From assembly GCF_050920415.1 (NCBI RefSeq), contig NZ_CP169309.1: DNA of 64,000 bases; one strand, given 5' to 3'. The notes under the pieces are model-generated. The model did not search any database. It was not told the origin of the DNA and saw only the letters and a program-made list of their open reading frames with translations. The position numbers and the translations under genes were made by a program. This stretch comes from Escherichia coli (GTDB taxonomy: Bacteria > Pseudomonadota > Gammaproteobacteria > Enterobacterales > Enterobacteriaceae). Numbering within the stretch: the first letter of the stretch is position 1; each line of letters starts with the position of its first letter. Below, piece by piece: positions 18,561 through 23,300 of the stretch.

Positions 18561-19118
18561 TAAAAGTAAAACAATCTGCAATCTCAATATTATTGTGTGA
18601 TTTTTATGTGAGCAGAAGATATTCATCAGAAACGATTATGTAAATCATTTTATTTTTCCGACGGCTTCAATGTCGAAAGAAAAGAATACGCCCGTATTTC
18701 CTGAATAGATTGACTTTTTTATCCAACCACACTTCAGCGCACTGCGTTTAAAAAATGCCTCTTTCTTATGCGGAATATCATCATTTCATCATGATGTCTT
18801 TGATGAGCGGTGAACACAATACACTTGCGCTGTCTCTTCAGGATGATTCCCCTGGTCTGGTGCCTATGGGCTGATGTTGCAGCAGAGCTAAGGTTGCTTA
18901 AACGCTACTCAGTATTCACTTTTCAGAGGATGAAATTTATGAACAGGACCAGTCCCCATTATTGTCGTCGCTCAGTACTTTCCTTACTAATATCTGCCTT
19001 GATATATGCTCCGCCCGCGATGGCGGCTAGACTGGCCCCCTGAATCTCCAGACAACCAGTATCACTTAAATAAGTGATAGTCTTAATACTAGTTTTTAGA
19101 CTAGTCATTGGAGAACAG

Positions 19119-19482
19119 ATGATTGATGTCTTAGGGCCGGAGAAACGCAGACGGCGTACCACACAGGAAAAGATCGCAATTGTTCAGCAGAGCTTTGAAC
19201 CGGGGGACGGTCTCCCTCGTTGCCCGGCAACATGGTGTAGCAGCCAGCCAGTTATTTCTCTGGCGTAAGCAATACCAGGAAGGAAGTCTTACTGCTGTCG
19301 CCGCCGGAGAACAGGTTGTTCCTGCCTCTGAACTTGCTGCCGCCATGAAGCAGATTAAAGAACTCCAGCGCCTGCTCGGCAAGAAAACGATGGAAAATGA
19401 ACTCCTCAAAGAAGCCGTTGAATATGGACGGGCAAAAAAGTGGATAGCGCACGCGCCCTTATTGCCCGGGGATGGGGAGTAA
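19119..19482 (+). pseudogene. insC: IS2 orfA (InsC), apparently frameshifted
   Basis: [29 protein letters not shown] then switches frame to [24 protein letters not shown]...; ORF track shows two overlapping pieces (19074..19268, 19180..19482). Confidence 0.6.
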
Positions 19483-20345
19483 GCTTAGTCAGCCGTTGTC
19501 TCCGGGTGTCGCGTGCGCAGTTGCACGTCATTCTCAGACGAACCGATGACTGGATGGATGGCCGCCGCAGTCGTCACACTGATGATACGGATGTGCTTCT
19601 CCGTATACACCATGTTATCGGAGAGCTGCCCACGTATGGTTATCGTCGGGTATGGGCGCTGCTTCGCAGACAGGCAGAACTTGATGGTATGCCTGCGATC
19701 AATGCCAAACGTGTTTACCGGATCATGCGCCAGAATGCGCTGTTGCTTGAGCGAAAACCTGCTGTACCGCCATCGAAACGGGCACATACAGGCAGAGTGG
19801 CCGTGAAAGAAAGCAATCAGCGATGGTGCTCTGACGGGTTCGAGTTCTGCTGTGATAACGGAGAGAGACTGCGTGTCACGTTCGCGCTGGACTGCTGTGA
19901 TCGTGAGGCACTGCACTGGGCGGTGACTACTGGCGGCTTCAACAGTGAAACAGTACAGGACGTCATGCTGGGAGCGGTGGAACGCCGCTTCGGCAACGAT
20001 CTTCCGTCGTCTCCAGTGGAGTGGCTGACGGATAATGGTTCATGCTACCGGGCTAATGAAACACGCCAGTTCGCCCGGATGTTGGGACTTGAACCGAAGA
20101 ACACGGCGGTGCGGAGTCCGGAGAGTAACGGAATAGCAGAGAGCTTCGTGAAAACGATAAAGCGTGACTACATCAGTATCATGCCCAAACCAGACGGGTT
20201 AACGGCAGCAAAGAACCTTGCAGAGGCGTTCGAGCATTATAACGAATGGCATCCGCATAGTGCGCTGGGTTATCGCTCGCCACGGGAATATCTGCGGCAG
20301 CGGGCTTGTAATGGGTTAAGTGATAACAGATGTCTGGAAATATAG
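19440..20345 (+). CDS. insD: IS2 orfB transposase (InsD, DDE integrase fold)
   Basis: 301-aa [41 protein letters not shown]... recognised as IS2 InsD. Confidence 0.9.
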
Positions 20346-23300
20346 GGGCAAATCCAGCGGCCTTTACCTCTAATGTTATTGGTGTGGTAAACGATGAGAC
20401 TGTAGATGGTGTCCAAAAAGTAGATGAACGAGGTACAACAAATAACACTCATATTATCAACCACGGTTATCAGGATGTTTATGGCGGGGTATCTAATGGA
20501 AGTATTATTGAATCTGGTGGCCGTCAATATGTATCAGCCAATGGTACTCATCAGGGGCAGGCCAATAATACAGTCATTAACGGTGGCAGCCAGACAATTC
20601 TGGACGGGGGAATTTCCACAGGGACGATAATCCAGAGTGGCAGTCAGTATGTTTATGCAGGTGGTACCAGTAATGCAACAACGATAATAAGCGGTCGTTC
20701 AACAGTAATGGGGGGAACTGCGAATGGAACAATAATTAATGGTGGGAGCCAGTCAGTATCGAGTCAGGGGCGTGTTGACGGTACGACGATAAATATGTCC
20801 GGGCATCAGGAGATTACGCAAGGAAGTCTGGCAACGAACACAACAATAGATGGGGGGTGGCAGTATGTGGACTCAAGCAGTGTAGAAAATACTACCATTA
20901 AGAATGGAGGCGAGCAAAGAACAGTTAAGAGCCATGCGCTGAACACCACAATAGATGGTGGTCTACAGGTTGTCGATTCAAGTACCGCAGAAATAACCAC
21001 CATTAAGAGTGGAGGAACGCAACAATTAAATAACAGCCAGGCTATGTTCACCACGATTGAAGGCGGAACTCAGTCTCTGAATAGTAAGTCAACGGCAAAA
21101 AATACTCAGATCTATTCTGGTGGCACGCAAATTGTTGATAACACCAGCACCTCGGATGTTATTGAAATTTATTCCGGTGGCGTGCTTGATGTTAGAGGTG
21201 GTATGGCAACAAATGTTACTCAGCACGATGGCGCGGCTTTAAAAGCAATGACTGACTGGTCGACGGTGAGCGGTACGAATAGTGAAGGTGCATTCTCTAT
21301 TCACAATAACGTGGCAGACAATGTGTTGCTGGAAAACGGTGGCCATTTAGACGTATATGGTTCGGCAAACAAGACGATTATTAAAGATAAAGGAACAATG
21401 TCAGTTTTAGCGAATGCTAAAGCTGATGCGACCCGAATAGATAATGGCGGGGTTATGGATGTTGCCGGAAACGCGACCAATACCATAATTAATGGTGGCA
21501 CACAGAATATAAATAATCATGGTATTGCCACGGGAACCAATATCAACAGCGGAACACAAAATATCAAGAGCGGCGGGAAAGCTGACACGACAAATATCTC
21601 CTCCGGGAGCCGGCAGGTTGTTGAGAAAGATGGTACGGCAACTGGCAGCAATATTAGCGCCGGAGGCTCGCTGATTGTCTATACCGGTGGTATCGCACAT
21701 GGGGTTAACCAGGAGACGGGCAGTGCTTTAGTTGCCAACACGGGCGCAGGGACTGATATTGAAGGATACAACAAGCTCTCTCACTTCACTATTACCGGAG
21801 GGGAGGCTAATTATGTTGTGCTGGAAAATACCGGCGAACTGACGGTAGTGGCTAAAACCACGGCGAAAAATACTACCGTTGATGCTGGCGGTAAGCTGAT
21901 TGTCCAGAAGGAGGCTAAAACAGATACCACCAGACTTAATAATGGTGGCGTTCTGGAGGTTCAGGACGGTGGTGAGGCTAAGCATGTTGAGCAACAATCC
22001 GGCGGCGCATTGATTGCTTCCACGACTTCCGGAACACTTATCGAAGGAACCAACAGTTATGGTGATGCTTTCTACATCAGGAATTCAGAAGCTAAAAATG
22101 TAGTGCTGGAAAACGCTGGCTCATTAACAGTCGTTACTGGTTCCCGGGCAGTTGATACGATTATTAATGCCAACGGCAAAATGGATGTTTATGGAAAAGA
22201 TGTTGGCACTGTACTCAATAGTGCGGGCACCCAAACAATATATGCCAGTGCCACTTCTGATAAAGCAAATATCAAAGGTGGCAAGCAAACGGTATATGGT
22301 TTAGCCACTGAGGCAAATATCGAAAGTGGTGAACAAATTGTTGATGGTGGGTCAACAGATAAAACGCACATCAAAGGCGGCACGCAAACCGTTCAGAATT
22401 ATGGTAAGGCGATCAATACCGATATCGTCTCTGGCCTACAACAAATTATGGCAAACGGGACAGCGGAAGGTTCCATTATTAATGGCGGTTCACAGGTAGT
22501 TAATGAGGGCGGTCTGGCTGAAAACTCGGTACTTAATGACGGCGGCACACTCGATGTGCGGGAGAAAGGCAGCGCTACGGGGATACAGCAGAGTAGCCAG
22601 GGCGCGCTGGTGGCAACCACCAGGGCGACGCGGGTCACAGGGACACGCGCTGATGGCGTCGCGTTCAGCATCGAGCAGGATGCGGCGAACAATATCCTGC
22701 TGGCAAATGGCGGCGTGTTAACCGTGGAGTCAGACACCACTTCCGCCAAAACACAGGTCAATGCGGGCGGACGGGAGATCGTCAAAACAAAAGCCACTGC
22801 GACTGGCACGATGCTTACCGGCGGTGAACAAATCGTCGAGGGTGTGGCGACTGAGACAACGATTAACGACGGCGGAATACAAACAGTTTCGGCTAACGGT
22901 GAGGCAGTAAAAACAACGATTAATGAAGGCGGTACGCTGACAGTCAACGATAATGGCAAAGCGACAGATATCATCCAGAACAGCGGTGCCGCTCTCCAGA
23001 CGAGCACGGCTAACGGTATTGAAATCAGCGGTACTCACCAGTACGGCACCTTTTCCATTGCCGGAAATTTAGCGACCAATGTGCTGCTGGAAAATGGCGG
23101 TAATTTATTGGTATTAGCAGGTACCGAAGCTCGCGATTCCACGGTTGGCAACGGTGGGGCAATGCAAAACCTGGGTCAGGACTTCGCCACAAAGGTTAAT
23201 TCCGGTGGGCAATATACCCTTGGTCGGTCAAAAGATGAGTTTCAGGCTCTGGCCCGGGCAGAAGATCTACAGGTCGCTGGCGGGACGGCAATCGTCTATG

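Follow-up and report, generated by a model that had tools for sequence, protein, structure and literature searches.

Reference elements and the ypjA locus

The closest described relative of the element reported here is IS2A of E. coli K-12 MG1655 (NC_000913, 381260..382590, insC1/insD1), a 1331-bp insertion sequence. The architecture of the IS2 ends, including lengths of 42 bp for the left (IRL) and 41 bp for the right end (IRR), has been described previously (PMC3299598). The gene that harbors the new copy, ypjA/ehaD, encodes a chromosomal autotransporter adhesin of the AIDA-I type. In K-12 and EHEC it lies in the order ileY, ypjC/B, pinH remnant, ypjA, and the same chromosomal position is occupied in the 64,000-nucleotide stretch of E. 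coli contig NZ_CP169309.1 analysed here (the window). The product encoded in the window shows 89% protein identity to that of K-12 over residues 1–1267 and shares its AIDA repeats, Pertactin domain and Autotransporter beta-domain; the window allele has an additional 35-residue repeat and, at the DNA level, two deletions of 6 bp. Unlike the K-12 gene, the window allele carries IS2 in codon 30 and a 1-bp deletion which parts the passenger from the barrel.

The inactivation of ypjA by IS2 is a kind of event already known. In E. coli VG48B2 (NZ_CP128584.1), the same gene was hit independently by the same element and is annotated by RefSeq as two pseudogene halves around IS2. The site differs, being located about 1.5 kb into ypjA (TSD ATACT region), and the VG48B2 element, unlike the window copy, is intact with an annotated programmed frameshift.

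Boundaries and ends of the element

The IS3-family element was placed at 19028..20356 on the plus strand (1329 bp) by aligning it with K-12 IS2A and with two further IS2 copies; its transposase genes are co-oriented with ypjA. It shares with IS2A the 42-bp IRL, the 41-bp IRR, the TA…CA termini and the 5-bp target-site duplication (TSD), as well as the orfA/orfB arrangement with an A6G slippery site and an OrfB of the rve/DDE type. The two sequences are identical at 1325 of 1331 positions. The differences, which make the window copy 1329 rather than 1331 bp long, are a 2-bp gap at IS positions 179–180, falling in codon 30 of orfA, and four substitutions. All four substitutions match intact 1331-bp IS2 copies of E. 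coli MFDS1022581, both chromosomal (TSD CTTTA) and plasmid-borne (TSD GAATC), and the sole private change of the window IS2 relative to those copies is the 2-bp deletion.

IRL (19028..19069, plus strand, 42 bp) reads 5'-TAGACTGG...TTAA and retains the 5'-TA terminus. IRR (20316..20356, plus strand, 41 bp, TTAAGTG...AATCCA-3') is identical to that of K-12 IS2A and contains an ATG at 20330..20332. IRL differs from K-12 by a single base, A32G, in non-conserved element C of the protein-binding domain; that position 32 belongs to a non-conserved element of the end has been established previously (PMC3299598). The same base is present in intact IS2 copies at two other MFDS1022581 sites, each flanked by its own TSD. 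A crippling effect of A32G on IRL was considered and rejected, as intact copies with this base have inserted at at least two other sites and the element affected is not conserved.

Insertion site and target duplication

The element is flanked by GCGGC on the left (19023..19027) and on the right (20357..20361), whereas the empty site holds a single GCGGC. Removal of IS2 together with one GCGGC from the window sequence gave a 120-bp string with an exact match in MFDS1022581 (position 6469 of the fetched locus), where ypjA/ehaD is uninterrupted and has its RefSeq start at 6440. An identical empty-site sequence was found in all 10 of the other fetched loci encoding the same YpjCB protein, giving 11 loci with a single GCGGC, so the repeat is a true target-site duplication and not a chance 5-mer. 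The first-pass annotation had described a 1329-bp IS2 flanked by GCGGC and inserted in situ at the signal-peptide boundary of the autotransporter gene, and in all of these respects the alignments and the empty site agree with it; the identity, boundaries and insertion anatomy of the element are thus confirmed.

The 5' fragment of ypjA/ehaD (18939..19027, plus strand) comprises codons 1–29 and two bases of codon 30 (MNRTSPHYCRRSVLSLLISALIYAPPAMA|A). Its start at 18939 corresponds to the RefSeq start in MFDS1022581 and in K-12 b2647, and the native ATG is preceded by an AGAGGA-type Shine–Dalgarno (SD) sequence with a duplex energy of -5.8 kcal/mol. The reading frame continues into IS2 (…ARLAP) and ends at the TGA at 19041..19043. 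IS2 splits codons 1–30 from the passenger, so that the signal peptide is no longer contiguous with it, and lies within codon 30, a single residue beyond the signal-peptidase site A-M-A|A predicted by the -3/-1 rule only.

IS2 at this ypjA site was absent from the complete RefSeq E. coli genomes, and the IS2/ypjA junction had no match among GTDB representative genomes. Neither the exact fusion ORF nor the 49-residue OrfA remnant described below had a record in the assembly index.

Coding capacity of the inserted copy

The missing letters of the window IS2 are the 'AT' of orfA codon 30 (Met30), the gap lying between 19205 and 19206. In the region 19150..19260, the intact allele reads CCGGGGATGACGG and the deleted allele CCGGGGGACGG. 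The broken orfA (19119..19268, plus strand) consists of 29 native codons followed by 20 out-of-frame codons and a stop at 19266..19268, which corresponds to a product of 49 aa. The orfA remainder (19207..19482, plus strand; codons 31–121 and the stop) is out of frame with the ATG at 19119, and the sequence of its HTH, its LZ-like region and the A6G slippery site (19434..19440) is intact. The orfB (insD) gene (19440..20345, plus strand, 301 codons) is also intact and differs from its K-12 counterpart at two synonymous positions. Its product contains the rve/DDE integrase core (Pfam rve and rve_3) and was recognized by the NCBIfam model PRK09409, 'IS2 transposase TnpB', at 727.6 bits (cut-off 597). 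The gene architecture of IS2 is therefore retained, including the A6G site and orfB, but the orfA frame is lost from codon 30 onward. The first-pass annotation had placed the break of the orfA frame after ...QSFEPG and ascribed it to a 2-bp loss relative to the 1331-bp element; the alignment to reference IS2 located the same 2-bp gap and left no intact orfA.

The DNA-binding domain of OrfA has been mapped to residues 13–58, with the HTH at M30–K51, and binding is lost in OrfA variants with N-terminal deletions (Lewis et al. 2011, PMC3219604). Met30, lost by the deletion, is the first residue of this HTH, and everything 3' of it is out of frame. A Pfam search with the 49-aa product gave no match; intact OrfA matches HTH_Tnp_1 over residues 8–87. 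Because translation from the orfA ATG stops after 49 residues, neither OrfA nor the OrfAB transposase would be made from the native start. The window IS2 is thus predicted to be non-autonomous, with transposition in cis lost. The previous description of the copy as probably transposition-defective accordingly holds for autonomous movement, with Met30 lost and the HTH out of frame. Movement in trans is conceivable, since neither end nor the A6G site is damaged and since a null IS2 construct showed background transposition that has been ascribed to chromosomal IS2 copies (PMC3219604); the window copy could still be moved in this way.

A second lesion in ypjA

The passenger part of ypjA contains 11 Pfam AIDA repeats (E = 4e-141) and a Pertactin domain (E = 2e-44). 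A second lesion, which the first-pass annotation had not considered, is located at 24155..24165 on the plus strand, where one base is missing from a G run near 24161 (K-12 TCTGGGGGGCG, window TCT-GGGGACG). The beta-barrel translocator (24235..24945, plus strand; Pfam Autotransporter beta-domain, E = 1.3e-42) was found by tblastn in a frame different from that of the passenger and, as a result of the deletion, the two are no longer parts of one polypeptide.

The same 1-bp deletion is present in MFDS1022581, the strain with the empty site, and the reconstructed pre-insertion product (1318 aa) had an exact match exclusively in this strain. Other strains with identical YpjCB encode a YpjA of 1557 aa. 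By parsimony, a frameshift shared with the empty-site strain is probably older than the IS2 insertion; this order relies on one related genome, and slippage in a G run could recur independently.

The reading frame opened by the right end of IS2

The ATG within IRR opens an ORF of 1299 codons (20330..24229, plus strand), composed of nine codons from IRR and the ypjA passenger with its 11 AIDA repeats and Pertactin domain; its early end is due to the frameshift near 24161. It was proposed in the first-pass annotation that this ATG could drive a signal-less passenger fragment, and a functional version of the proposal would hold that read-through or read-out from IS2 yields a cytoplasmic AIDA-repeat protein. 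The long in-frame ORF is real, and transcription starting at the ypjA promoter or at P_IRL might, in principle, extend through the co-oriented IS2 and ypjA. However, the SD duplex at ATG 20330 reaches only -3.1 kcal/mol, which ranks at the 44th percentile when all of the window's ATGs are compared and is no better than a random ATG, against -5.8 kcal/mol at the native ypjA start, and a scan of 18600..20700, including the right end of IS2, revealed no plus-strand promoter-like sites. An in-frame start is also the expected outcome, as two of the three frames leading out of IS2 contain a start codon, and the idea that ATG 20330 is in frame by more than chance was rejected on this basis.

In the geometry described for Pjunc, the -35 element lies in IRR (PMC3219604); in the window this -35 element is downstream of ATG 20330. 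A hybrid outward promoter, with the -35 in IRR and the -10 in the flank, was rejected, as the hexamer at 17-bp spacing reads CGGCCT and no plus-strand site was detected. Moreover, a product without signal peptide and beta-barrel cannot be an autotransporter. A functional role for read-out from this ATG is consequently highly improbable, and of the earlier proposal the reading frame stands while the SD, promoter and exit-frame data lend nothing to its use. Meaningful expression of the passenger from ATG 20330 would not be expected.

Proposed history of the locus

The data are best explained by an IS2 insertion into an already dead ypjA, followed by the loss of 'AT' from orfA in situ, a scenario to which we assign as a whole a probability of roughly 0.85. 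The source would have been an IS2 of the sub-lineage that is active in E. coli MFDS1022581, the nearest relative with a sequenced genome, and ypjA would already have been a pseudogene through the 1-bp deletion in the G run when it arrived. Transposition presumably followed the normal copy-out/paste-in route of the IS3 family, with a figure-of-eight intermediate, a minicircle and a 5-bp staggered insertion. The element would have entered codon 30, a single residue beyond the predicted signal-peptidase site, duplicating GCGGC. The inserted copy would have lost the 'AT' of orfA codon 30 afterwards, and translation from the orfA ATG would then stop after 49 residues, yielding neither the OrfA regulator nor OrfAB by -1 frameshifting. 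The predicted end state is an IS2 that retains both ends intact and is non-autonomous. The anatomy of the insertion, the empty site, the deletion and the second frameshift common to both strains are observed directly, whereas the order of events and the loss of transposase function are what we infer from them.

The timing of the deletion was evaluated in about 13,000 IS2 places in all. In complete E. coli genomes, 11,602 IS2 places were compared, and none matched the deleted allele over its full length; the full-coverage matches listed were all 97.3% identical (2-bp gap), and two records in the band of at least 99% identity, ranked below all of them, were taken from their rank to be partial. 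On plasmids, none of 1,853 IS2 places fell in the band of at least 99%, and the allele was also absent from GTDB representative genomes. As no full-length match was detected in these places, the 2-bp deletion probably arose in situ, after the insertion.

The same rarity would be expected if the deletion had been introduced by faulty assembly or consensus calling in a multi-copy repeat, the real copy being an intact 1331-bp IS2. The window copy is otherwise identical to intact copies of the nearest relative, and the polishing of IS copies is hard in repeat-rich genomes. However, the lost letters are an 'AT' between G runs and not a simple change of homopolymer length. Long-read errors tend to cluster in Dam and Dcm motifs, and the deletion site, as read from the sequence, lies outside both. 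Private inactivating mutations are also common in single IS copies, and an error appears unlikely.

The insertion-then-deletion order could be reversed if a copy that was already defective had entered ypjA, mobilised in trans by the transposase of other IS2 copies. Both ends of the window element are intact, the nearest relative is rich in IS2 places (20 chromosomal and 11 on the plasmid record), and the background transposition of the null construct mentioned above was ascribed to chromosomal IS2 copies. However, the deleted allele had no full-length match in complete E. coli genomes, plasmids or GTDB representatives. IS3-family transposases, as known from IS911, prefer to act in cis. Entry of a defective copy in trans is therefore quite improbable, and the deletion after insertion is retained as the preferred reading.

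Significance for annotation and typing

The locus is a case of ordinary two-stage genome decay, in which an IS entered a probably already frameshifted adhesin gene and the IS copy then decayed itself. It is very improbable that the transposase-dead IS2 is other than inert, whether by MITE-like mobilisation in trans or by read-through into a cytoplasmic AIDA-repeat protein with a new role, and nothing in the sequence demands either. The importance of the locus beyond annotation is little. Two features of the locus, the junction (…GCGATGGCGGC|TAGACTGG…) and the 2-bp deletion private to its IS2, could be useful for strain typing as markers of the lineage, since the complete E. coli genomes of the collection contain neither the junction nor a full-length copy of the deleted allele. 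For annotation, the locus corresponds to a ypjA pseudogene that is both interrupted by an IS and frameshifted, and the element to an IS2 copy with a frameshifted insC/orfA.

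IS2 Insertion at the Signal-Peptide Boundary of ypjA

The IS2 copy occupies 19028..20356 on the plus strand (1329 bp), and its frames are co-directional with the interrupted gene, ypjA/ehaD, which encodes an AIDA-I-type adhesin-like autotransporter and lies in its usual context (ileY, ypjC/B, the pinH remnant, ypjA). The outer ends of the 42-bp left terminal inverted repeat (IRL, 19028..19069, starting with TAGACTGGCCCCC) and the 41-bp right one (IRR, 20316..20356, ending with GGGGCAAATCCA) are directly abutted by GCGGC pentamers at 19023..19027 and 20357..20361. No further IS2 left end was found in the window.

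The alignment to the 1331-bp K-12 IS2A revealed four substitutions (A32G, A606C, C900G, C906T) and a 2-bp gap at IS positions 179-180, with an intact IRR. The A6G slippery site (19434..19440) was intact, as was orfB (301 codons, rve core), which differed from K-12 only at IS positions 900 and 906, both changes being synonymous. All structural tests for IS2 were passed by the element, an intact orfA excepted.

The first-pass annotation had taken GCGGC on both sides of a 1329-bp IS2 as a sign of insertion in situ, and the empty site bears this out. The 120-bp query, rebuilt in silico by removing the IS2 and one GCGGC, matched exactly the chromosome of E. coli MFDS1022581, the closest sequenced relative (position 6469 of its ypjA locus, L001), with flanks 100% identical to those of the window. 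The uninterrupted sequence was also present in 10 of 10 further loci fetched via the identical YpjCB protein, none of which contained the IS2 junction. The GCGGC repeat is a true duplication made by the insertion. A 3-kb query across the IS2 was covered by only 5 of 5,426 complete E. coli genomes, at 91-93% identity; in VG48B2, the one of the five inspected, ypjA is likewise interrupted, by an independent event that placed IS2 ~1.5 kb deeper in the gene. Since the junction was absent from the 10 loci, the covering genomes were so few and divergent and the VG48B2 site differs, the insertion at 19028 is specific to one strain or narrow lineage.

The ypjA gene starts with the ATG at 18939, served by the Shine-Dalgarno (SD) sequence AGAGGA (duplex -5.8 kcal/mol), and its product begins with MNRTSPHYCRRSVLSLLISALIYAPPAMA followed by AFTSN…. 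The -3/-1 rule predicts a signal peptidase site A-M-A↓A after residue 29. As the IS2 splits codon 30 between bases 2 and 3, the earlier placement of the element at the signal-peptide boundary was accurate to one residue. The 5' ypjA fragment continues into IRL and terminates after …AARLAP.

A 2-bp Deletion in orfA and Its Predicted Consequence for Transposition

The gap falls between 19205 and 19206 and removes 'AT' from orfA codon 30, changing CCGGGG-ATG-ACG to CCGGGG-G-ACG. The product from ATG 19119 comprises 29 native residues (…QSFEPG) and 20 unrelated ones, with the stop at 19266..19268. The alignment agrees exactly with the proposed break of the frame after …QSFEPG through a 2-bp loss relative to 1331 bp, so the split is no misreading of the frames. 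Pfam placed HTH_Tnp_1 at residues 8-87 of intact OrfA and detected no domain in the 49-aa broken product. In the restored frame, TTG 19180 is the sole start upstream; it matches the SD weakly (-4.3 kcal/mol), and a protein begun there would be without helix 1. The chief remaining doubt is a possible, though unlikely, assembly error in place of a genuine 2-bp deletion.

The domains of the IS2 transposase were mapped by Lewis et al. 2011 (PMC3219604): a DNA-binding domain of three helices (residues 13-58), an HTH motif (M30-K51) and a leucine-zipper-like oligomerisation region (residues 73-100). In earlier work, OrfA derivatives missing as few as 12 N-terminal residues lost binding (PMC3219604). 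Because the deletion abolishes Met30 itself and shifts the frame throughout the HTH, the zipper and the frameshift site, so that the whole catalytic OrfB part, reached via that site, is out of frame too, the mapped domains predict a copy incapable of transposing on its own. The earlier description of the element as probably transposition-defective holds in this autonomous sense and does not extend to immobility; 'non-autonomous' would fit better than 'immobile', since the ends are intact and the background transposition of a null IS2 construct was ascribed to chromosomal IS2 copies (PMC3219604).

Origin of the Copy

The best whole-element matches were two intact 1331-bp IS2 copies, both in the empty-site strain MFDS1022581, one chromosomal (TSD CTTTA) and one on its 242-kb plasmid (TSD GAATC). 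All four substitutions are common to these and the window copy, and the 2-bp deletion, being the sole difference, appears private to the latter. As both intact copies with their own target-site duplications carry A32G, this change in IRL is no bar to transposition; IS position 32 belongs to element C, a non-conserved stretch within the protein-binding portion of the IS2 end (PMC3299598).

A 71-bp probe centred on the deletion hit 11,602 IS2 places across complete E. coli genomes and 1,853 on plasmids. Among the matches listed, all full-coverage E. coli hits had 97.3% identity, as the 2-bp gap would give. The band of at least 99% contained two E. coli records, which ranked below all full-coverage hits and were assumed, uninspected, to be partial matches. 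None of the 1,853 plasmid places reached at least 99%, and the deleted allele had no exact match in GTDB representative genomes. The simplest history is that an intact IS2 inserted and then decayed in place.

Counting partial matches, IS2 places in MFDS1022581 number 20 for the chromosome record and 11 for that of the 242-kb plasmid (L005 and L006), and all belong to the sub-variant of the window copy, a pattern suggestive of IS2 having expanded in this lineage.

A Second Lesion in ypjA

Compared with K-12, ypjA has lost 1 bp from a G run near 24161 (within 24155..24165), turning TCTGGGGGGCG into TCT-GGGGACG. The frame of the passenger closes at 24229, and the Autotransporter beta-domain (24235..24945) lies in another frame. 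Because MFDS1022581, whose ypjA is free of the IS2, has the identical deletion, ypjA would, by parsimony from this one relative, already have been dead before the IS2 arrived. Slippage in G runs can recur. The two ypjA sequences differ further only at 24249, 24250, 24331 and by a 1-bp deletion at 24369, which is private to MFDS1022581. The rebuilt pre-insertion YpjA (1318 aa) has one exact record, in MFDS1022581; the full 1557-aa YpjA is encoded by other strains with an identical YpjCB neighbour. The window allele lacks two features that define an autotransporter, namely a signal peptide contiguous with the passenger and a barrel in the same frame. YpjA expression has been associated with biofilm formation (PMC9289746; PMC12547504).

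The allele also differs from K-12 by a 105-bp in-frame insertion (20944..21048, one extra 35-residue AIDA-type repeat) and by the in-frame loss of 6 bp at each of two places (near 21350 and near 23978), which looks like ordinary repeat-number variation.

The In-Frame ATG at the IS2 Right End

The suggestion that the in-frame ATG at 20330 could drive a signal-less passenger fragment stands insofar as the frame exists: this ATG, within IRR, opens an ORF of 1299 codons, nine IS2-derived and the rest ypjA passenger. However, its SD duplex (-3.1 kcal/mol) is only at the 44th percentile of 1,196 ATGs in the window, and the promoter scan found no plus-strand promoter-like site in 18600..20700. Two of the three exit frames have a start after the last stop (ATG 20330, GTG 20320), so an in-frame start is an expected outcome of same-orientation insertion. 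The minicircle junction promoter, Pjunc, takes its -35 from IRR and requires the -10 at a distance of exactly 17 bp (PMC3219604). The ypjA flank offers CGGCCT at that spacing, and the -35 hexamer, which we place at ~20335..20340 by combining the IRR sequence with the 17-bp spacer, would lie downstream of ATG 20330. A protein made from this ATG would have neither signal peptide nor translocator. For these reasons little weight is given to ATG 20330, and the predicted read-out ORF is regarded as incidental and truncated.

The earlier observation is confirmed and its interpretation supported with two refinements, the non-autonomous copy and the incidental, truncated read-out ORF. Nothing in the case departs from known biology.

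Neighbouring Features

YpjCB is a single 484-aa ORF with DUF5507 and DUF5508 (16548..18002, plus strand), whereas in K-12 two genes, ypjC and ypjB, share this region; the broken version thus appears to be that of K-12. The tRNA at 15721..15796 (plus strand), called tRNA-Met (CAU) by ARAGORN, has as its RefSeq orthologue ileY, a tRNA-Ile with a lysidine-modified CAU anticodon.

Between ypjA and the prophage integrase, a 506-aa ORF (25286..26803, minus strand) scored 428 bits against the NCBIfam model for antiphage GapS1, whose cut-off is 320, and gave no Pfam or PADLOC match. The P2/186-like prophage (26819..about 60100; integrase, 186-type CI repressor, CII (CP76), Dam-type methyltransferase, replication protein GpA, portal) lies between ypjA and ssrA/smpB (tmRNA 61027..61389), the place of CP4-57 in K-12, with its integrase at the end distal to ssrA. 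The best complete-genome matches to 20357..40000 cover only about 80%. The variable region between gpA and portal (34326..38184) contains three ORFs, namely a 243-aa ORF with no family match, a truncated IS21-family transposase (36643..37338, minus strand) and a 232-aa DUF4145 protein that PADLOC matches weakly to PD-T7-4 (E = 1e-6); the three together may be phage-defence cargo.
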